Below are positions 1,681 to 63,931 of a stretch of DNA of 64,000 nt, one piece after another. Under the pieces are notes generated by a model. It was not told the DNA's origin. It worked only from the letters and a program-made list of their open reading frames with translations, and did no database searches. The stretch's first letter is position 1. Each line of letters opens with the position of its first letter. The position numbers were made by a program, and so were the translations under genes. Source of the stretch: Novakomyces olei (lineage: Eukaryota); contig JADEYG010000007.1 of the NCBI GenBank assembly GCA_016906335.1, forward strand, positions 1,488,001 to 1,552,000, written 5' to 3'.

Positions 1681-4600
1681 TCATTTGTATAGACCCTCGT
1701 ACCCTCCATTAGCGTCTGCCCTATATGCAATGTGTAAAATATCCAGTACAGACTTTATGCCCGGCTCCGTGATCGGCCGCGGCATTATAGCATCAAAGCA
1801 GTGACTTTTGTCATCGTGTCCCGCCACTGAAGTTGAAGATTGATCAGCGATGGCAACGATAGGCGTGCCCTGGTTCTCACAAACAAGGCTACGGATCATT
1901 TTCACTGCGTCTGCTCCAGATAATCGAGGCATATTGACGGCAGTGAAGATTGCTTGAAACGGCTTTTCCGACATTGCAAGCCGCAGCATCTCTGACCCGG
2001 TTGAGGCTATTACTACACTGAACCCGAGCCGGGTGAGGTACAGTCTCATAATCTCTGTGGCCACACGATTATCATCGGCCACGAGTATACTGGGCCCAGC
2101 ACTTTCAGCAGCAGCAGGTGAACCTCTTTCGCCTGCTCCAGAGGCAGCTGCTGCAGTAGAAGGCCGACGTGCGTGTACGACAGAAACGCGTCTCAAGATA
2201 TGGAAAGGTTTGCCACTCGGCGAAGAGTTTCTGTGCCGAACAAGAACAGGTGCATCTTCAGAATCAGACGCTGAAGATGAGGCAGTGGCTGCCGTCTCCT
2301 CAATCACATCGCTGTTGGCTCTTTTATGTTGCTGCTGAGCACGGAAGGCATCGAGAACCGTGGGCCTTTCAAACTCTGATCCCGTAGTGGCCGACCGTTT
2401 CCTCGATGCCGTATTTACTCTTAATTTTGCTATAGGCGAACCAGTAGCATTAGCATTAGCATTAGCATTAGCATTTGTATTTGCACTAGTACTAGTACTA
2501 ATACCAAGACTTGTACCAAGACTTGTACCAGTACTGGCAGTATTACTACCCGTACTCGACCCGTTCAGAGCTTCGAGGGCAAGAGCCCTCTGATCCTCCT
2601 TGGCCACTGCCCTTCGCTGTAATGGCGAAAAAGTACCTGTTGACCTGTTGGTGACGGCCGTCGTTGGCGGCGAGTGTGGTGGAAAGTAAGACGAGGCAAT
2701 ATTCGTTGGAGAATTGCTGGCAATACTTGAATTCGTAGAGGGCGAGGACGCTTGCCGCAGGGACGACGATGTCATTGTCATCCGTCTCTGCATTGTGTCG
2801 GGACTGGCAGCCGATGTAATACTGCCGTGCCGGACTCGCAGTTTCTGAATTGCCTCCTTGTTTGCTCGGTCCAGAACGCCTAAATTTTTGTATGAAAACG
2901 ATCCAAAATCATCGGAAATGGAGGCGTCTGTTGACCTCCGATGCCGATGAGAAGAGTGCACTCCGACTCCGATATTATTATTATTATTATTGTTGTTATT
3001 GCTGTTGTTGCTGCCGCTGTTATTGCTGCCATTACTATTGTTGCTATTGTTGCTATTAGCCGTACTGCCGCCGGTGCTAAAAGAATAATGGAGGAAATTG
3101 TTGCTAAAACTGCCGCCCTCCCGCATATGCGGTGGAATGTGCAGAGGCATTGTCCGCTTTGACGCTGGTCTGCCTTCAACTGCCTCACTGGCAGGACCAA
3201 GGCTCAGCTTTGAGATTGCAGACTCTGGCCGGACGGGAGGCGAGTCCATTGCCTCGGGCGCCTGGCAAGTTGCAGTATTGTCAAAGAAAAGGTCCTGTAG
3301 CCCTTCGCTCTCGTGGATGCCGCGTGGATCAAAGTACTCTACGGATTCGGCTGCGTCTATCTGAGGCACAAACGGAGCGGCATCGTGTCTCAGTGTTTCC
3401 CAGTCTACATCCTTGAAAAACGCATGCGATTTGACTGCATCAACACTCTGACGGCCGAGTCTTTTACTCGAGTCCAGCGTCAGTAATCGCTTTATCAGAT
3501 CAACTGCCGCTGCAGAAACTTGGGGTGAACAAGTATCGCTATCGCCAGGATCGCCACCCCCTTCTGGCCACTCAATAACACCCGAAAGAATCCGCTCAAA
3601 GACCTTTTCCGGTGTAGTGTCGTGGAAGGGAGGGTAGCCGTAGCAAAATTCAAACAGTATACAGCCCAAAGACCACCAATCACCAGCATCGTCCTGGCTA
3701 GTGCCGTTTATTGTTTCCGGAGCCAAATAATCCGGAGTCCCCAGGAACCGTTTAGCACCTTCTTTAGCGTCAAAAAGGGCCATTGGTGGAGGAGGCATAA
3801 CGACAGAAGAGTTCCGTCTTTTCAACGTGGGCGGCAGTAGCGGAGCTGCCGATAGCGCTGGCAGCTGAGATTGGCTCTGCAGTGAGCTCGAGCTGGAAGA
3901 GACACTGGCCGCGTCATCGTCTACTGTGTGATGATGGCCGTTTTGGTAAAAGGCACTACTGCTCGTGGTCGGCGGACTAAACGCACTTGGCGGACTAGTA
4001 TGGTAGTGGCCCAGCCGATTAGCGCTGGTGGGAGCTCCAGTGCCGGCAGTATGAGGATGCTGAGGCTGCTGAAGGGCGAGATTGCTAAAGTAGTTAGTTA
4101 GTGAGGCATCAATCTTGGAAACAGGATCAGTCTTGGAAACAGGAGGACTGCCTTGGGCAACGGGCCGGGCGGCAGAGGTACTGCTCTCGGGTTTAGGCAG
4201 ATTGAAATAAGAGCTGTTAATTGCAGAGCCGCCTGCTGAAGCTACGGGCGAGTCTGTTTGCCCGAGCGGAGTGCTCGTTGCTGAGAAGCTGTCAAGAGAA
4301 CCTGATCTCTGTGAGCTCTGTGACGTCGTCCGCGGCCGATGATTGTCAAACGAGGCAAAATGGAGACTTTCATCACTAAAACCCATGGCTGAAAACTGCT
4401 GTTGTTGTTGCTGGTGCTGTTGCTGTTGTTGGTGTAGTCTAGTTTGCCGGCCAACGAGTCCCATTCGTGATAGACCAAAGTCGGTCAGTTTTAGATGGCC
4501 ATCAGCGTCAATAAGAAGATTGTCAGGCTTCAAGTCACGGTGGATAATACCCCTAGAGTGCAGATCTTCTAGGGCCAGTACTATCTCTGCCACGTACTTG

Positions 4601-7324
4601 ACTGCCCAGTCTTCGGGCAGAGGGCCCATCGTCTTCAATAGCGCTGCACAATCACCCCCACACAGGTACTCGTTCACGAGGTAGAGATAGTTTTGGTTTT
4701 GGAACGTGTAGTACAATTTAGCAACGTAATCGGACTCCTCTTGTGCCATCAGAATTGCTCTCTCCGCTCGCACATTCGTAACCTGATTCTTTGCAATCAT
4801 ATCCGCTTTTTTCAGTACTTTTATTGCGTAATAGTCGCCCGTAGATTTTTTCTTGGTCAGGTAGACACTGCCAAAGGCGCCTTTGCTTATAGGCTTGACT
4901 ACCTCAAAGTCTTTAATACTCGCCGTTGTCGGCCGGAGCGAGGGCGCCATTGAGGACAGCCGGGGTGAGACTGTAGGCTTGAGCAGATCTAGACTGCTTC
5001 CTGAAGCCAGACGTCGGTGCGTGGACGAGGATGCGGCAGTAGCGGTAGGAGCAGCAGCAGCAGCAGAAGAAGAAGAAGAAGAGCCGGCATTGAAATTACC
5101 AGTTGTTGAGGGGTCAGTAGGGTCAAGTCGGGGCGACTGGTTAGGGGACACGTAACCTTCAAAGGCAGACATGACCCTTTGCCGAGCCATTTTGGCTGGC
5201 GAAGTAGAGTATACACGTGAAGGCGATTGGCCCCTCGAGCCAGGCGACGGGCTCCGTCTGTTTATGCCATAGACTCCACGCTTTTTCTCCATCGGAATAT
5301 CCCAGCCTGGAGGCTGTGGCTGCGGAAAGAGTCGGAGATCCGTGTGGGAAATTGACCCCTCTGCCTTTAAATTGCCAAACGGCTTTGCTGCGGCCAGTCC
5401 ACTACCAGTAGCTTTTGCTTCTTCCACAGGTGGGGAAGCGATGGCAGAGTCTGCGGCCGTAACAAGCGGCGAAGAAAGATCAATGTGGGGTCCCGCTTCA
5501 CTACTAGTTCTGGACGACGTCGGGACCTGCAGGAAAGATCGGCCCCGGCTTTGCTGGTCCAGGCCTGGGTCATCCATGACCTCAGAATCGGCCAAAAGTG
5601 TCCTTGACAGTGGGCTTTTAGGAGTATTACTTCCAGAACTACCATGGCTAGCGTGCCTATGCTCCCTCAGCGACTCGTCCCTCTTAATATTGGACACGAA
5701 TTTACGGTCTTCTGCAAATTTGAGAGCGTCGTTCTCCTCAATCTCTGCTCGCTCGAGCTCTTTTATCGTCTCTGCAATAACCTGCTGTACCTGCTCATCA
5801 ATCTCTGCGCGTATCGTCTCTGCATAAGTGATAATGTTTCTCAATCGAACGATTGCCGAGACCTTGGCCGTCACTAGAGTCCATGTATCCTCAATTGCAG
5901 CCGACGCCGCAGGATCTTCGGATACAGGTGCAGACCACTGTGAAATTGCTTGCAGGGATAATTCGCTGTCGGGCGATAAAAGCCGATTGCTCACGACAGC
6001 TGTTAGATTTTTATTATTACTGCTATTACCGTTTTCATTGTCAGTCGCGCTTGAATCCAGGTACGTAAACTCTTTAATACTCGGGGCGCCAATATCGATC
6101 GCAGTATCACAATGCTCCAAAAGTTCAGACCAAACCTGCTCGTCATGGTTGTTGAGTTCCAAAAGATTAGCAGTTGAATGGCTTTGTCGAAGATATTTAG
6201 ACATTTCGTGCTTTTGATAGGGCGAAGAAGGGTTTGAGGATACTCGCAGTGGGATTCCTCTATAGTTTATGCTCTCTGTTGTGCTCACCTCCGCCGTGTC
6301 AGCACTACCGGCACCACCGCATTTCTGCCTTTTAAGCTGTTCAAGTAGGAGCGACAGCGTCGCCCTATGCTCTCGCAAGTTGTCCTGACACTCTTGCAAA
6401 GAGCTTTCCGCCCGGTGGCTTATCAGGCACAGTTCCGAGTGCTTTTCAAAGAACCAAGGCTGAACCATTCGCTCACAGATACGGCAGAGCATCTGTGGTG
6501 GTACTTGGTGCTCCTCGGCCAGTCCATCGTTAGTCAGTGATTCGAGATACTGTACGAGCACCTGTGCACCAATGCCTAGAGTCTTTGACAAGTTTTCGTC
6601 CAGCGTAATTGATAATATTTGTTCCACGTACGGTCTAAGGATCCACATAGTCTAAAGCGATCAATTAGCACAGCGTCTCTTTTGGAATTTGAAGAGTAAA
6701 GAAAATAGATAAAGTACGTACATGCGAGACCTGCCCGGAGGATAAATCCCGAATTACGATGCCGACGCCTTCCATATCCAAAAGCGTAGTCTCGTCCTCA
6801 TCACTGGTAAAAACCAGCTCCCTTGAAACATTCCCACAGGCATTGCTAATCATGGTAAAACGCACACGACAACTACGCTCGTCGTCCGCCAAAAGCCGGT
6901 TTGTAGCTTCAACAAAAATCTCCTTGTCATCTTGCACACAAAACTCTGAGATTTTGCGGCCCACCACCTCTGACCGATCTGATCTACACCGAGTCAGTAA
7001 TGAAAAAAAAATCATTTATATATAAAAAGACAAAAAAGTTGAAGCCAATCGATATAATTTTATAAAGAGGCAATGAAAAGATCGGTTCCCCAACAAGACT
7101 TGGCAACGGTAAATCTATGAATCTAGAGCGCCATACCCCTGTACAGACTGCCAAGATTGGGACACCCATTTTATACAGCCGTCTTTAGCCAATTCTGCCA
7201 CGATAACGTCATCGATACTCTGTGCTTCCGCCGAGTCGGAGAGCCTCGGTGCACATTCACCGCCATTGCTTTCAGATCCGCCTGTTTCGTGCTCAGTTAC
7301 TGGCTGTGCAGCAGACTGACTCAT
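1681..7324 (-). CDS. RIM15: Rim15/Cek1-type Greatwall-family kinase: PAS domain, C2HC finger, split kinase domain, C-terminal receiver domain; 2 introns
   Basis: KPISKGAFGSVYL, IAKNQVTNVRAERAIL, HRDLKPDNLL, DFGLS, long insert, then GTPDYLAPE; CRICE...HSELC finger; ILVADDN receiver. GT-AG introns near 6652-6720 and 6986-7134. Confidence 0.93.
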
Positions 7325-21119: not shown

Positions 21120-22871
21120 TTAAATTTGCTCCTGTGCCTCTTCCTCTAGAGCACCTTGCTCTTCGTCTTCATCAAAAGCATCCATAGGGCAGCTATAGAA
21201 TCGCAAGATCGGCTTGTTGGGATCCTTGACAAGGACGTATTTGCCATCAGGCTGAGCCAGACACATATCGGCAATTGTTCGGATAACACCCCAGCCATTA
21301 GAGATGCTATGGTTCATCTGAGAGGCAAAGTCCCGTGGATTGTATCCAAAAACACCGAGAACCGAATGCTTTGAGGCATCTCTAGCATTCACACGGGTCA
21401 CAAATCCGAGCTTTATAGTATCACAGCCGGCTAAAACTGCCTGTGATACCCATCGAGCCAGTTTGCAAGAGTTATTCTTCATCTCTGTGGCCACAACACT
21501 TCCTCTCTGTGCGTCTAACTTGCTCCGCCAATCAACGGAATTTCCTCCCGAGCCTTGAGCCTTTGAGTCAAATTCGTTCAGGGCCTTTATGGTGAGGTAC
21601 TGGGTTTCACCACCGGCAGTCCGCAAGAACCCGTCCACTTCTGTGCGTACAATCAGGGAAACAGGAGCCTCAGATGAGGTGGATATATCAAATTTGCGGT
21701 AACGGTAGCCCCTTCCAGAGCAAGGCTCGGTCTCCTCCTCTGCGTTATAAAAAGGGTTGGCATTATCAAACTCCAACCGGTTCTCATCGCTCTCCATAAT
21801 GACCTGCTGGCTGAAATTTTGATTGATAAAAGTAGCCTCCAGGGCAAGAGCCTGCGGGGAATTAATTGTCTCCTTTGACCCCTCGGCCGGCTCCATTGGA
21901 GGATCAGGAGCATTTTCGTTAACGCTCACATAGTCAAACGGGTTCATATAGTTATCGCGCTTATCGAAGTAGAGTTTATTGCCCTCGCGCGTTACTACAA
22001 TGTCCCACGGGTGGGCACTGCGAGTCGCACACATGAGCAGGCTCAGGATATTGTCGGTAGCAAAGATCTGAGCTTGATCGGAGACAGCCAATTCCTGAAT
22101 AATCGGGTCATCTGTAGTCGTAGTGTTATAATGCACACGGTCGATGGTCTGCAGCGGCCGCTCTGTGCGGACGGATAACTTATCGTAAGACTTGTCGTAT
22201 GCGTATATAAAGCCATAAGTGCCCACATCCTGGCCTTCTCCAATATCCAAGTTCAATTTTTGTAGTCGGCTGTACTCAATCTCCTCAAGCATAATCCAAT
22301 CGTGCTGCACCGTGACGCTTGCATCACGCAGCCGCTGTGGTTTCTCAAAATCCTTCCAGCCAAACCGACGGCCACGGCCCCCACCTTGACCCCCACCTTG
22401 GCCCCCACCGTTAGCGTAACCCCCACGGCGCCCACCAAAATCAGCACGCTGCCCAAAACGGCCAGTTCCGCCTCGACCACGAGCAGCAGCTCCTCCACGT
22501 CCACGCGGCTTTAACAGTGTGCCTCCAGTCCTCGAAGCCAGTCGTGACCGAACAGACGCGTTTCGATCGACCACGGAAAAGGAAGACTCGTCTTCCATAT
22601 GTTGGTAGGCAAACATAGACGTCGCCCCAGAGCCGTAGACCTGATTTTCACGGAACCTGGATCCGTACCAGCCCGGCCGTGCTCGCGTGTCGCCAGCACG
22701 AGCAGCGTCCTTGGGGAACTCTGCTGTCCAATCAGCTGCCCGGCCCAGCCGATCGCTCTTGCTGAACGGAGCAAGAGGCATATCCTGCGTCGTGGTAGTG
22801 TCCACCGTATCGCCCGGTCCCCATCTGTCGGGGGATTGGGCCACGTGCGGCAGCTTGAACGCGGCCACCAT
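21120..22871 (-). CDS. EIF3D: Translation initiation factor eIF3 subunit D (Moe1)
   Basis: PFSKSDRLGRAADW, TTTDDPII, DWRSKLDAQRGSVVATEMKNNSCKLARW, GKYVLVKDPNKP; intronless. Confidence 0.97.
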   Translation of the reverse strand: MVAAFKLPHVAQSPDRWGPGDTVDTTTTQDMPLAPFSKSDRLGRAADWTAEFPKDAARAGDTRARPGWYGSRFRENQVYGSGATSMFAYQHMEDESSFSVVDRNASVRSRLASRTGGTLLKPRGRGGAAARGRGGTGRFGQRADFGGRRGGYANGGGQGGGQGGGRGRRFGWKDFEKPQRLRDASVTVQHDWIMLEEIEYSRLQKLNLDIGEGQDVGTYGFIYAYDKSYDKLSVRTERPLQTIDRVHYNTTTTDDPIIQELAVSDQAQIFATDNILSLLMCATRSAHPWDIVVTREGNKLYFDKRDNYMNPFDYVSVNENAPDPPMEPAEGSKETINSPQALALEATFINQNFSQQVIMESDENRLEFDNANPFYNAEEETEPCSGRGYRYRKFDISTSSEAPVSLIVRTEVDGFLRTAGGETQYLTIKALNEFDSKAQGSGGNSVDWRSKLDAQRGSVVATEMKNNSCKLARWVSQAVLAGCDTIKLGFVTRVNARDASKHSVLGVFGYNPRDFASQMNHSISNGWGVIRTIADMCLAQPDGKYVLVKDPNKPILRFYSCPMDAFDEDEEQGALEEEAQEQI

Positions 22872-23002
22872 TGCTCTGAAATTTTTTGCTGTCTTGATTA
22901 TTTCTTTTATTTATTTATTTTTTTTTAAATAATATTCGTGCAGAATAATAATGTAAGTCGGTTAAGTGTAGTAGCATGAGGAGACCTGTACTATAAGAAG
23001 CA

Positions 23003-41203: not shown

Positions 41204-41432
41204 TAAAAAAATAAATAAATAATTGGTAAGCAAAAAATCTATATTGTTCGGCAATTTTTGAAGCAAGAGGTCACAAGATACAAAGGAAAATCTTTTGTTG
41301 AACAACAAAACTTTAAATTGCAATTGGCTTTCAATCGTTCAGAGTATAAACTGACTATAGTAAAAGGATTATTTAATAATTTATATACCAGGCTGCTCTA
41401 CGCGATAAACGCATATTCATTAATTCTTCATC

Positions 41433-43461
41433 ATGGGCGGAAACACTGAATGCCGCGTCCTTTACTGGTTTCGAACGGATTTGCGAGTGCACGACTCGCC
41501 CGCACTAAATCGAGCTTTGTCACTAAAACCAACAGCTCTTTTCCCTGTATGGACATGGGACCCACACTACGTTTACCGCGCTCGTGTTGGCCCGAATCGG
41601 TGGAGGTTTCTTCTTGAATCCCAGCAGGACTTGTCGGATTCCCTAAAGGCCATTAATCCGCGACAAAAATTGTTGGTAGTAAGGGAGGGCCCTACAACAG
41701 TACTGCCCAAGTTGTTTAAAAAATGGAAAATAACACATCTCGTGTTTGAAAAGGACACAGATTCGTATGCTCTAGAGCGGGATAATCAAGTAATGCAGCT
41801 AGCAAAAGACGCTGGTGTTCATGTTGAACGTGTCGTGGGCCGAACCTTGTTTGATCCGGAAACGGTAGTGCAAAAGAATGGCGGCAAGCCCACGCTGAGC
41901 GCGGGCCAGCTGCATTCGGCAATTGCGCAGATCGACAATGGAGTGCCCACGAAATGCGTGGGCACTCCTGAATCATTGCCGGACCCTGGCAGTGAACAAG
42001 AATTGGATCTCAGCAGCTTGGATCACAAAGTACCGAACCCTTCACCGGACCTGAACAAGGCCAACAGATCGCAGGATAAGCAATACTCCCCCCTTGCTGG
42101 GCCAAAGGGCGATTATGCTATTGTTACGTTGGAAGAAATGGGTATTTTAAATGGCCAATCGCCCCATCGTGGAGGCGAGCATGAGGCATTAGCATTGCTT
42201 GAAAAGTATGCAAAAGACGAAGAGTATGTAGCGCTTTTTGAGAAGCCAAAAACTGCTCCGACTGATTTCGAGCCGCAGTCAACTACTCTGCTGAGTCCGC
42301 ATCTACACTTTGGCACTTTATCCGTGCGGAAATTTTGGTGGATGATAAGAGACATATTCCAAGCAAGGGAGAAAGCCGGTAAGAAGCACGCAGCTGAGCC
42401 GATGAATTTACTCGGCCAATTACTTTTCCGTGAAATGTTTTTTGCGGCCCAATGTGCCGTCGGACCTCAGTATGGCCAAAGCCTGGGTAACAGTATCTGT
42501 CGATTTGTTCCCTGGCATTTGCAGAGCAATTATTCCATAAAAGACGGGGGAAAACAACTGTCTGATCATACATATGAGGTAGATGATGAAAAGGCCGAAG
42601 AGTATTTCCAGCGTTGGAAACATGGTCAAACCGGATTTCCTTGGATCGATGCTCTTATGCGACAGCTGAGAAGTGAAGGGTGGATCCATCATTTAGGTAG
42701 ACATGCAGTTGCCTGCTTTCTGACTCGTGGAGGCTGTTATGTCAGCTGGGAACGAGGTGCTGAAGTTTTCGAAGAGCTTTTAATCGACCATGAACCGGCC
42801 TCCAATGCAGGTAATTGGATGTGGTATGGATATATTTTATATATGTAAAGCACTAACCTTCAGGCTGAGTTGCACCGCGTTTTTTAGCCAATTTTATCGG
42901 TGTTATAGTCCCGTCAGTTTTCCAAAGAAATGGGACCCAGAGGGAAAATTTGTTCGAAAGTATGTCCCAGAACTGAGAAAATTTGATAAAAAGTACATTT
43001 ATGAGCCTCATAAAGCTCCAAAATCAGACCAAAAAGTTTGGGGTTGTGAGATAGTGGAGGATTATACCAAAGCCCAAGGCGGTAAATCGTCAACGTACCC
43101 AGCACCAATGCTTGATTTCAATGAGTGCCGTCAATTTTGTTTGGATAAAATGAAAGAGGCATACGATGCGGGACTGCACGGTGATGATGAAAAAGTGCTG
43201 AGCGGAGAATGGAAAAAACTATTTGGTTATGGGACCAACATAAAATCAGAATCTAAGCAAAAACCAAAACGAAAGGCGATGCATGATGAAAATGGAGAAG
43301 AGCGAAAGGCAAATGAAAACCGGACTTATGGGCACAAGGATCAAAATGCTTCAACTGATGGTGAAGAGTCTCCTGAAGATTCGGGCAAAAGCCGGGCCAA
43401 ACAGATAAGTTCAAACAAACGCTCCAAGTCAACACGCACTTCCAAGACAAAAAACTCATGA
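41433..43461 (+). CDS. (6-4) photolyase / animal-type cryptochrome family protein; 1 intron
   Basis: YWFRTDLRVHDSPAL, LSPHLHFG, TGFPWIDALMRQL, GWIHHLGRHAVACFLTRG, NAGNWMWLS; Lys-rich C-terminal tail. Confidence 0.95.
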
Positions 43462-45137
43462 AAATTTGATACTTAGACGAAGACTAATTGGAAGCCGTGC
43501 ATCTGTCACAGCTATTTCTTCTCCATTAGAAACAAGACTGGAAAGTGTCTTTTCGAGATTAGGTCTAGTAGAACGCTCCAGCTGAGGTGGAGCTTGCAAA
43601 TATAATGATTTTGTAGACGTCCGTAGGCTGGGGGCCTTGAGTTGCCTGAACGAATCAGTATTTTAATGATATATTTGTAGATGCGTGCTGAATTTTGAAA
43701 GATAATTAATAAAAATAAAGGAACATCAAAGAACGATAAAATTTGAAACAACTTTGTATGTAAAAGAGAAAAGCTGAACGTTTTTGAGACGCTATAGCTC
43801 AATGAAAACAAATAATGTACTTTTCAGGGTCGTCTTGCAGACGGTCGATTAAATCCTGTAATGTCCAAAGAGAATTTGCTGTTATTGACTGAGTTATATC
43901 CCCACATACGGGGCAATCTGATCGTTTCTGGTGTTCAAAAGTATAAGTATAGACTCCGTTCTCTCCAGTATACATCATATAATTCTCCAGATAAGGATTG
44001 CAAGACGTTGCTATCTTGAAAGCCTCGTTACAGCAGGCAGCTAACGACACATTAACATATGAACCGACCTTATACACTCTTTTTGTTTCTTTTTCTCTAT
44101 CATTTTCTCTATTTTGCGCTTTTGATTGAAAACATACCTGCAATTATAGCATTTGTTGAGGCAATAGCAGGAATGATGTTCTTTACGACGCCTTGAGTAA
44201 GCGAGTAAGTAACACCGGTAATGTTAAACTCCTTTGCTCGAGCAGCTGCAGTAGCCCGCAGCCATTCAATGTGCTCAGGATCGTCAGTGTCTAAACGCGA
44301 ATCACTGCCATGCTTTCTCGGCCATTCTAGCACTGACGCCCATTCAATACAATGCTCTGGAAGACGCGGTGTATTGGCAATGGTGCATATAGGGTATTTT
44401 ACAATCTGGCCCAGCATATCCAAGGAACACTCGTAGCAGGACGTTATTGTCGGAAGGATGACTCGTGCCTGCCCCTTAAAACCTTTTCTGAATAAGCACG
44501 AATGGAAAAGGTTGGATTTAAAAAAAAAACAGTAATAACCCATATTTTGTAATCAACAACTGGAAAACGAATAAAGTACAATAGCAATCTATTGAAACAA
44601 ACACTGTCGCGCAACCATACCCTCTGTACCGCCGTCTACAAGAGGCTTCAAAGATTCCGGACTTTCGGGATCTACCATCCCCACTAGTGTAGCATTAATC
44701 CAGCGCCTTGCCTCGACACTATCGAGCCCGCAGATAACAATACCAAACTGCATGTAGAAAGATTCATCAAAATCCTGGATTTTATTGTGATGAGGTGTGA
44801 CAACCACACCAGGAACTCGATGGTTGACAAAGGCAGCGGCCACTTGTGCTTTAGGTTTGCCAACATCACTGGCACGGAAGAGAAATTGTCTGTTCAAATT
44901 GCTCAGATCAATCGTGTCCATGTCAATCACATGAATATCCGTGAATCCCGAAAGTGCTAAGTTTTTAAGGATCTCGCATCCCAGTCCGCCGGCCCCAATA
45001 ACCAGTACCTTGCACGACCGTAAGAAATTACCGACCTCTGGTGATGGGGAGAACCCGATTCCATCGGAAAAAGGCCCTTGTCGTGAGAGCACATTGGCGA
45101 CACCACACAATTGCCGTTCAAATACCCGCTCACTCAT
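43456..45137 (-). CDS. UBA3: NEDD8-activating enzyme E1 catalytic subunit; 3 introns
   Basis: [63 protein letters not shown]2-binding domain PSLRT...[14 protein letters not shown] ending LSIKFS*. Confidence 0.96.
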
Positions 45138-45758
45138 GCCGCCAACCAGTCCACCAATGACTGAGGCTAAACTGCTGAGCCGAATGTACGTCAAATAAGC
45201 CCAATTTGAAATAGACTTCCTAATAGCTGTCTCCTATTAGCTCACTACCTGACTGAAACCTATCAGTATTCGAATTCAGGTCTAATTCCATAAAGTCAGT
45301 ACCGCTTTAACGGACCATTTCTTGGCTGATTGTCCTTTCCCGTCCAATCGTCCGCGCGACTGTGTTAGGCAAAAGTTACTCTGCGTTGTGCTTAAAACTA
45401 TAGTGCCCAGACTGACACTGAGCACGGAATATCGCAATATCAGTCAAGCTTCTACTGTTAGGGCTAATATAAACCCTAATCCTAATTATTTGAGGATATA
45501 ACATCTTTCTCTTTGCGAATCCTCTCTTTTCGCAGCGAATAGGATAGTTTACGCAGCGGTCTTGATTTAAAAATTATTTGGACCAAAAAAATCTCTGAAA
45601 ACCAGTGCGCGTGCTCAAAGCATTCGGCACCGGCTTTAGCAATCTTTAGACGGACTGCAATCGATCGCAGCTAATTTCGATTTCCCTTTGCTTGGAGCTT
45701 TTGAGTGACGGAAAGCGTCCGGTGTAACTGTGATAGTCGTGTTTGAGCAACAAGCGTA

Positions 45759-62116: not shown

Positions 62117-62849
62117 TCAGTCATTTTTTGATTGAAATAAATGACTTTGTTCAAATGCCTTATAGGCGGGCCGGTCGAGGCTCTTCTTGGCGACGTCGAT
62201 ATCGGTTCGTATATCCCGTATTAAAGCTTCCTTTGACACATAATCATACTCTGGTCTAATATAACCTAAAAACAATACGCGTATCGTGGAACCATAAAAG
62301 TCCTTTTCGAAAGATTTCATTATATGAATTTCCTTGACGTAAGAGAAGAATACAGAAATGTTTAAACCCAAAAAAAATAAAAAGATAGAAAAAAAAATAG
62401 GGCAGAGAAAAGAGTTAAACAAAGGCAAAACCAGTTAAAGAGAAAAGCTCCTTAAACTCCAAAGGCAATACACCAAAACGTAATGGGAATAGACTTGATT
62501 TAACGAATAATTACCACTGCGCGTTTCTCATTATGGTAGAAAGGATTCCATCCACAGCTGGCGACGTAAACAAAGTCAGTAAAAATACTCAGAGTAGCTA
62601 ACATATCATTGGGAGCACAGGACCGTCTGCAATCTGTGCAAAGCCATAGTAAACGCCGCTCGGCTGTTGTGCTAAAACCGCAGGTATATCATCATCGCTA
62701 ATATTCGCAGTCGGAATCCCTAATTCTTTCGAGCCACGGCCAAATCCGTGCACCACTGTGCCTTGGATGCTTATAGGAAAAGGCTCATTTGGATTTTCAG
62801 GGCCGGCAATTGAAGGCCGGTCCTTTGCGTCTAGAGGCGGTACTCCCAT
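62117..62849 (-). CDS. FMN1: Riboflavin kinase; 2 introns, the first apparently AT-AC (another in-frame ATG lies at 62906)
   Basis: [61 protein letters not shown]. Confidence 0.95.
62566..62606 (-). other. 41-nt AT-AC intron with U2-type signals
   Basis: ATATGTTAGCTACTCTGAGTATTTTTACTGACTTTGTTTAC; it is the only excision I found that restores PMVxSxGWNPFY. Confidence 0.85.
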
Positions 62850-63199
62850 ACTACTCTGTCCGCCGCCTTTTCTATAATGTTGGAGTATATTTGTTATATG
62901 CTCCATATTACTTGATCCAGAAATTAGGGTTAGGGTTAACCTTCCGTATATTACGGTCTAACCTCTTCATAGTGTATCGAGCCTTGGTAACATGGTATAA
63001 ACCTTGTACAAAAATAAGGTTACTTGATGTGTAAAACTGGCGAAACTTCGAATTGTATACATTATACATTGCTTAGTATGTGAACAAGTATAACTGTGTA
63101 ATTGCTAAACTCCAAGTATGCTCAGAGCACATACATCATACGAAGAATTAACGTGCCAATACCTCAGATCTAGAGCCAAGCGAGCCAAGCAAAGCAAGC

Positions 63200-63931
63200 A
63201 TGAAAGCATCAACGACGTTCTTTGTATTGGGCCTTTTCGGTATTGTATCTGCGCAGCTTATTGTTCCAAACGTCTATGGCGAGCACGAGCACCGTCCTGA
63301 GCCGGAGCAGTTGAGAGCCTTAGACAAACTCGCCCAGCTGAGAGAAGCCGCAGTGCAGGAAGAAGCTAGCCGTGGGAAGGACGATTATCGAATTCTGCCC
63401 ATGGACGGATCTACGCCTTCGGGCGCGAATGCAAATCGTTTGCTATGTGACGTACTGCCTTCAGAGCGATCTGTATCTATCTACTTTGATCTTCTCATGT
63501 CGGAGTACAATCTGGTAAGTGCTCCAATTTAACTGTACGATTAACGTAAATCCTAGGCGGATCGCATCCGTAACCAAAAGCAAAATAGCACGTTACTGGT
63601 TCCCAGCAATTTAGCGATTCAATCATTGGGATATAAGCCGTGGCAACCTCCCCAGACGGGAAACTCTATTGGGCAGGATCGGGAGAATGTATTATCCGAG
63701 GACGAAGCTCAGTCCAATATTCGGGAGTTTGTTTCGCGTCACATTGTCCCGGTGTCTCCTCTTTTGGAAGGTCGGCAATATCCTTCAATGAGTCAGTCTT
63801 CGCGCCAAATTTCTTTTGCAAGGACCGATGATGGCTCCATATACGTCAACCCGGGAAGTCGTAAAATGCTCAAGAAGCTGGCGACTTCAAACGGAGAGGT
63901 GTGGATTATTGATGGCGTACTTGACGTTTAA
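63200..63931 (+). CDS. Secreted FAS1/fasciclin-domain protein (Mug57-like); 1 intron
   Basis: Signal peptide; STLLVPSNLAIQSLGYKPW, NIREFVSRHIV, NGEVWIIDGVL; intron 63515-63556. Confidence 0.88.

Follow-up and report, generated by a model that had tools for sequence, protein, structure and literature searches.

Introns that carry AT-AC termini on otherwise U2-type signals ('AT-AC type II') were defined as a class by Sheth et al. 2006, with 24 examples in five animal and plant genomes (PMC1557818). Human SCN4A and SCN5A supplied the founding cases and, as relayed by the papers that cite Wu and Krainer 1997, such introns are removed by the major spliceosome. AT-AC is a rare combination in fungi according to an annotation survey (PMC7072748), and in the accessible part of a further study (PMC10639083), neither Ascomycota nor Basidiomycota have convincing minor introns or minor snRNAs. 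In Schizosaccharomyces pombe, which has no minor spliceosome, a previously misannotated AT-AC intron of lea1 came to light in spliceosome profiling and was verified by RT-PCR, according to the available portion of the preprint (bioRxiv 10.1101/226894). For S. cerevisiae, the available text of PMC5029451 cites an engineered AT-AC intron that splices (Parker and Siliciano 1993) and describes a nested, low-level AT-AC intron in RPL30, used in 1–2% of transcripts.

Here we describe a candidate of the same kind, the first intron of a riboflavin kinase gene (FMN1) on the minus strand of the 64-kb stretch of DNA that was analysed, which as a whole we call the window. The U2-type AT-AC class is already established, and the FMN1 intron would be an additional example of it, unreported in the literature that we searched. 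This search returned no paper linking AT-AC introns with riboflavin kinase, and none under the systematic name of S. pombe fmn1 (SPCC18.16c). An earlier note on this DNA had pointed to the intron; it made no mention of lea1 in S. pombe, where a U2-type AT-AC intron had already been documented for a fungus lacking the minor spliceosome.

The FMN1 gene and its surroundings

The FMN1 gene spans positions 62849–62117 of the minus strand and is modelled with three exons: exon 1 (62607..62849), with 81 codons from the ATG at 62849; exon 2 (62515..62565), with 17 codons that include the GWNP motif; and exon 3 (62117..62332), with 71 codons and a TGA stop. Intron 1 (62566..62606, minus strand) is 41 nt long with AT...AC ends, and splits the PMVxS motif in phase 0, after the Met codon and before the Val codon. 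Intron 2 (62333..62514, minus strand) is 182 nt long, T-rich and in phase 0, and runs GTAATT...CAAG; the homologue alignment has no gap at its junction. The donor of intron 2 is unusual, with the T at +5 present in 1 of the 14 window donors described below, and this very T-rich intron has no YTRAY branch motif in the last 45 nt before its 3' end.

Exon 1 alone matched the Pfam Flavokinase profile (PF01687) over profile positions 3–54 with 47.6 bits, and exon 3 alone (62120–62326) over profile positions 76–124 with 43.9 bits (cutoff 19.6 in both cases). Exon 2 is below the length for a separate Pfam scan, and the gap between the two profile matches was filled in the homologue alignment. In this alignment, the 169-residue product left after excision of both introns (41 nt and 182 nt) was gap-free at both junctions against nine riboflavin kinases. 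The invariant columns are retained in exon 1, and the Ser, Gly, Asn and Pro of PMVxSxGWNP are all present once the 41 nt are excised. The closest named proteins to exon 1 are the Fmn1 proteins of Schizosaccharomyces japonicus (61% identity), S. pombe (58%) and S. cryophilus (56%). Judged by its sequence, the gene is a riboflavin kinase (FMN1/RFK), as the earlier note had named it, an assignment that is carried by the two Pfam matches and the gap-free alignment. Protein searches returned no entry for this FMN1, neither at full length nor for exon 1 alone.

The start at ATG 62849 agrees with the homologues; a second in-frame ATG lies upstream at 62906 and could serve as an alternative start. The FMN1 ATG is preceded, at a distance of some 75 nt, by a telomere-like repeat, (CCCTAA)2, at 62924–62935 of the minus strand, in the divergent promoter common to FMN1 and a plus-strand gene at 63152–63928. 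No other copy is present in the window, and a match occurred in 1 of 100 shuffles; the repeat may be a binding site for a TTAGGG-binding factor.

An assembly error at the ends of intron 1, for which the earlier note had allowed, did not appear. A 544-nt contig (depth 4.8) from a second study (X2), which carries another organism label, spans 62213–62756 with 0 differences and identical intron ends. Because this contig is identical, the A and C at the intron ends are not assembly errors, as far as the second data set shows. The DNA of another data set (X1) is also identical over the locus and may be the assembly's own source. In X2–X4, pieces of 31–36 nt that are less than 90% alike also fall over 62568–62616, some with a depth of up to 205, and continue into unlike sequence; these were treated as an unrelated AT-rich repeat of another organism in the samples.

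The lineage of the host was judged from two genes. eIF3d (21123–22910, minus strand) is full-length and single-exon, and its best named relatives, from Morchella, Schizosaccharomyces, Pneumocystis, Lipomyces and many Pezizomycotina, are 55–61% identical, with a top match of 69%. Both eIF3d and Fmn1 are nearest to ascomycete proteins and, since the named relatives of eIF3d reach only 55–61% identity, the host is an ascomycete without a close annotated relative.

The window also contains a DNA photolyase gene (41424–43458, plus strand; PF00875 and PF03441), with a predicted 40-nt GT-AG intron at 42824–42863 that agrees with Pfam profile coordinates 116/117. To our knowledge, fission yeast has no photolyase, so the presence of this gene speaks against the window being from Schizosaccharomyces. 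A 1656-codon open frame (1684–6651, minus strand) encodes a protein kinase domain and, at its C terminus, a receiver domain of the response-regulator type. The first two ORF pieces of a ThiF-family gene (44112–45233, minus strand) are joined in frame by no convincing short GT-AG, GC-AG or AT-AC intron; the in-frame GT-AG candidates are all at least 111 nt long and lack branch motifs, and the gene may include a small exon. The other genes of the window include eIF3d, eIF3i, HMG-CoA synthase, ArgJ, TYW2/Trm5 and a polo-box kinase, and also Vps18, TspO, the TFIID 20-kDa subunit, a DUF1996 gene and an MFS transporter.

Junction and signals of intron 1

On the minus strand, the sequence across intron 1 reads CCA ATG/ATATGT...TACTGAC...TTTAC/GTC GCC AGC, with slashes at the proposed junctions. 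If the intron is retained, a TAG (62600–62598) is reached after two codons. We enumerated junctions with any terminal dinucleotides, letting exon 1 end at 62680–62598 and exon 2 start as far down as 62530, for introns of 20 nt or more. This gave 2448 in-frame, stop-free pairs, among which GT-AG occurred 2 times, AT-AC 11, GC-AG 11, AT-AG 2 and GT-AC 9. Both in-frame GT-AG pairs (20 nt and 26 nt) were rejected as too short and without a branch site. Other candidates were set aside for their effect on the product: the 44-nt AT-AC excision loses the Met, the 47-nt AT-AG excision leaves a product two residues shorter, and the 59-nt GC-AG and 53-nt GT-AC excisions cause deletions. In the case of the 32-nt AT-AC excision, the intron end would coincide with the branch motif.

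Eight junctions were scored with a hidden Markov model (HMM) built on 114 of 120 homologues, the six excluded having lengths outside 150–270 residues. The 41-nt AT-AC junction scored highest, at 249.2 bits, followed by GT-AG of 26 nt (243.6 bits), AT-AC of 32 nt (242.2 bits), GC-AG of 41 nt (242.0 bits), AT-AC of 44 nt (240.7 bits), GT-AC of 53 nt (239.9 bits), AT-AG of 47 nt (237.8 bits) and GC-AG of 59 nt (234.8 bits); the margin over the best three rivals is modest, at 5.6–7.2 bits. In the PMVxSxGWNP motif of the homologues, Val is conserved in 110/114 and Ser in 114/114. Val and Ser are kept only by excisions that end at the AC of 62566, and their spacing and the Pro-Met are kept as well only by the 41-nt excision. 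These comparisons support the view that only the 41-nt AT...AC excision would yield the conserved motif without a gap. On re-reading the minus strand, the coordinates that the earlier note had given for intron 1 and for an overlapping GT...CAG pair were all correct. The note had also proposed that removal of the 41 nt restores the riboflavin kinase motif, which the gap-free alignment and the best HMM score bear out, and that retention runs into a TAG, which is the one at 62600–62598.

The 5' splice site ATATGT (62601..62606, minus strand, with the initial AT at 62606–62605) is GTATGT with A at +1. We compared it with the donors of 14 predicted GT-AG introns that connect ORF pieces within recognisable genes of the window: five in the Vps18-like gene, one (40 nt) in the DNA photolyase gene, FMN1 intron 2, and a further seven. 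Checks were made on five of these introns, namely Vps18 introns 1–3 and the photolyase intron by Pfam profile coordinates and FMN1 intron 2 by the homologue alignment, and the remaining nine are based on frame and signals alone. The set was limited to ORF-piece junctions of recognisable genes because motif and ORF scans were not discriminative. A loose scan for motifs in ORF-bridging introns gave 590 GT-AG against 716 AT-AC candidates, a strict scan gave 23 GTWNGT-AG candidates against 15–38 for seven control end combinations, and a scan of ORF pairs was also noisy. Among the 14 donors, the bases of ATATGT recur as A at +3 in 11/14, T at +4 in 5/14, G at +5 in 12/14 and T at +6 in 8/14, so that ATATGT has the most frequent window base at +3, +5 and +6 and the runner-up at +4.

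The branch-site motif TACTGAC (62575..62581, minus strand) places the presumed branch A at 62576, 10 nt before the last intron base; in 12 of the 13 window introns with a recognisable YTRAY motif, the branch A lies 5–14 nt from the 3' end. The window also has introns of 40 and 42 nt, close to the 41 nt of FMN1 intron 1. The intron closes with AC (62566..62567, minus strand), and there is no AG immediately 5' of the GTC codon required to open exon 2. When the 41-mer was shuffled, an NTA[AT]GT start and a CTRAC motif with its A 5–15 nt from the end occurred jointly in 17 of 200000 sequences, and a scan of the 64 kb found the same joint donor and branch pattern in 1 of 127918 segments of 41 nt. 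By the definition in PMC1557818, intron 1 would belong with the U2-type AT-AC introns, as its 5' splice site is the U2 consensus except at +1. It also has a U2-type branch site at a normal distance, with neither ATATCC nor TCCTTAAC.

Rival readings of intron 1

Intron 1 of FMN1 is quite likely a U2-type ('type II') AT-AC intron, that is, an ordinary short fungal intron in which the first G has changed to A and the last G to C. An earlier proposal was that its signals are U2-like rather than U12-like, and this agrees with the match of donor and branch site to the window introns and with the lack of U12 motifs. It is scarcely credible that the intron is of the U12 type, removed by the minor spliceosome, or was recently converted from one. 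Such an origin would account for the AT-AC ends and for a start, ATAT, that is shared with U12 donors. However, a U12 intron would have the donor ATATCCTT and the branch TCCTTAAC 10–15 nt from the 3' end, whereas intron 1 has the donor ATATGTTA and the branch region TTTTACTGAC; measured against the U12 consensus in the accessible part of PMC5029451, positions +5 to +8 read GTTA and not CCTT, and TCCTTAAC is missing from the branch region. The available text of PMC10639083, with no convincing minor introns or snRNAs in Ascomycota, also argues against it, as does the one relative whose gene has an intron at the FMN1 position, an intron that reads GTAAGT...TAG.

This relative came from a set of 80 metagenome loci that encode proteins related to FMN1 (all at most 62% identical). 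In 75 of them the motif is uninterrupted in one frame, 4 contigs end earlier, and 1, L078 (3171–4628, animal-like), has an intron of ∼1.45 kb at the position and phase of FMN1 intron 1, reading ATG/GTAAGT...TATAG/GTA and canonical for U2. The shared site could reflect common ancestry or parallel gain; both are possible because the Met-Val boundary (ATG/GT) is a natural proto-splice site. Whichever is the case, nothing in these sequences suggests a U12 past, and the canonical GTAAGT...TAG at the identical position in L078 is slight evidence against the idea, also put forward in the earlier note, of a former minor intron converted to the U2 type. A near-length protein search for the tails of the relatives' exon-1 ORFs, whose last residues would show the first intron bases, found nothing close. 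Nine other ORF junctions in the window yielded no convincing candidate for AT-AC or GC-AG, while the FMN1 control was recovered.

The remaining alternatives concern which ends are used and whether the gene works. A GT with the donor sequence GTTAGC (62601..62602, minus strand) lies 4 nt inside the AT-AC intron, and a CAG in exon 2 (62558..62560, minus strand) is the first AG past the branch site, 18 nt from the branch A. The GT at 62602–62601 and the AG at 62559–62558 together delimit 45 nt, and their excision shifts the frame and leads to two stops three codons into exon 3, in keeping with the early stop in the last exon that had been predicted for this pair. In all likelihood the pair goes unused or yields a minor by-product, although the GT 4 nt downstream might draw some transcripts into the 45-nt frameshifted product with the AG at 62558. 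A stronger version, which the earlier note had put forward and which is unlikely in our view, presupposes a real AT-AC intron and holds that the productive AT-AC and the frameshifting 45-nt GT-AG registers compete, with their ratio acting as a throttle or switch on FMN/FAD synthesis. Both registers are indeed present and overlap by 4 nt, and the 45-nt product would end at the stops in exon 3. GTTAGC is also fairly close to the loose local donor set (A at +4 in 8/14 and G at +5 in 12/14, with a GTTAGT-type donor probably present in the predicted DUF1996 intron of the window), and the CAG has the position of a first AG. On the other hand, the T at +3 (2/14) and the C at +6 (1/14) are rare, and the distance of 18 nt from the branch A to the CAG is beyond the 5–14 nt of 12/13 window introns. 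Furthermore, cryptic GT and AG dinucleotides are common around real splice sites, and there is no evident riboflavin-sensing element, with an Rfam scan of the 64-kb window giving no match.

The same CAG would also serve an in-frame GC-AG intron at 62598–62558, an alternative absent from the earlier note, which at 41 nt equals the AT-AC intron in length and leaves a stop-free frame. That this is the intron really excised is very improbable, even though its AG is standard and the first past the branch site, and GC-AG is the commonest non-canonical intron class. The donor, GCTACT, has a C at +5 that is found in 0/14 window donors and a T at +3 found in 2/14, with A at +4 and T at +6 each in 8/14. 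In the product, Ile-Cys-Tyr would replace Val-Ala-Ser where homologues have Val-x-Ser, putting Tyr in place of the Ser kept in 114/114 homologues and Ile in place of the Val kept in 110/114, and the HMM score is 242.0 bits against 249.2 bits for AT-AC. It is decidedly unlikely, too, that the locus is a pseudogene, or a gene that cannot be spliced, in which a GT-AG intron has decayed and whose function another copy has taken over. Such a reading is in keeping with the fact that one change, at either end, is enough to disable a GT-AG intron. However, the A and the C are precisely the pair of changes that compensate each other, the signals inside the intron are intact, the three exons are all open, and residues that are invariant or near-invariant in homologues are retained.

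Proposed mechanism and comparison with known systems

The excision of intron 1, and its removal by the major spliceosome, are predicted from protein homology and motifs, and the host presumably lacks both a minor spliceosome and an FMN1 paralogue. As a U2-type AT-AC intron, it would have ATATGT read by U1 and U6 in the normal register and TACTGAC paired by U2, with the branch formed at A62576. The first and last intron bases would need to be compatible, G with G or A with C. Because the A at the 5' end has C as its compatible partner, ligation would take the AC 10 nt past the branch and not an AG. Such compensation was demonstrated with the engineered budding-yeast intron (Parker and Siliciano 1993, cited in PMC5029451), and the U2-type AT-AC class is built on it (Wu and Krainer 1997, as cited; PMC1557818). 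The outcome would be a constitutive, productive FMN1 mRNA. It is unlikely that FMN1 is instead gated by two overlapping registers on one branch site, with the GT-AG donor displaced by 4 nt and its acceptor by 8 nt and with kinetics or regulation deciding, through the 5' end that is chosen, how much of the mRNA is productive, or that this deep-branching lineage is unusually rich in U2-type AT-AC introns.

FMN1 is essential in budding and fission yeast. Gene finders that accept only GT-AG introns would truncate or frameshift it, which makes the locus an annotation trap. The intron would be a second instance, from a coding gene of a distantly related ascomycete, in which the major spliceosome copes with a compensated A...C intron, and the case supports the idea that such introns arise sporadically out of GT-AG introns rather than surviving from minor ones. 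A new question would be raised only if the overlapping register that shifts the frame turns out to be in use.

With the U2-type AT-AC class, the FMN1 intron shares its AT/AC ends, a U2 consensus except at +1, and the lack of a U12 donor or branch motif. The animal members have a strong ATAAGT consensus, as given in the accessible part of PMC5029451, whereas the ATATGT of FMN1 has the flavour of the fungal GTATGT. Relative to the animal cases, the FMN1 intron is also set apart by its length of 41 nt and its yeast-like TACTGAC near the 3' end, and its splicing is predicted. U12-type AT-AC introns share the terminal dinucleotides; the ATATCCTT donor and TCCTTAAC branch are missing in FMN1, and the available text of PMC10639083 gives no known U12 machinery in the host lineage.

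The S. cerevisiae introns with a first A and a last C, as described in the available text of PMC5029451, resemble FMN1 in that the major spliceosome ligates an intron with these terminal bases, as it presumably does in FMN1. By that account, the RPL30 intron is used in 1–2% of transcripts, with an atypical donor and in a non-coding context, whereas excision of the AT-AC intron would be the sole route to the enzyme in FMN1. Intron 1 of S. pombe lea1 (SPBC1861.08c), as far as the available portion of bioRxiv 10.1101/226894 describes it, is like FMN1 intron 1 in having an ascomycete host, a position in the coding region and otherwise strong U2 signals, and it was missed by the original annotation, as was FMN1. 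The two differ in gene and in organism, which are distant (55–61% protein identity), and in that splicing of the lea1 intron is proven by RT-PCR and spliceosome profiling, whereas that of FMN1 is predicted.
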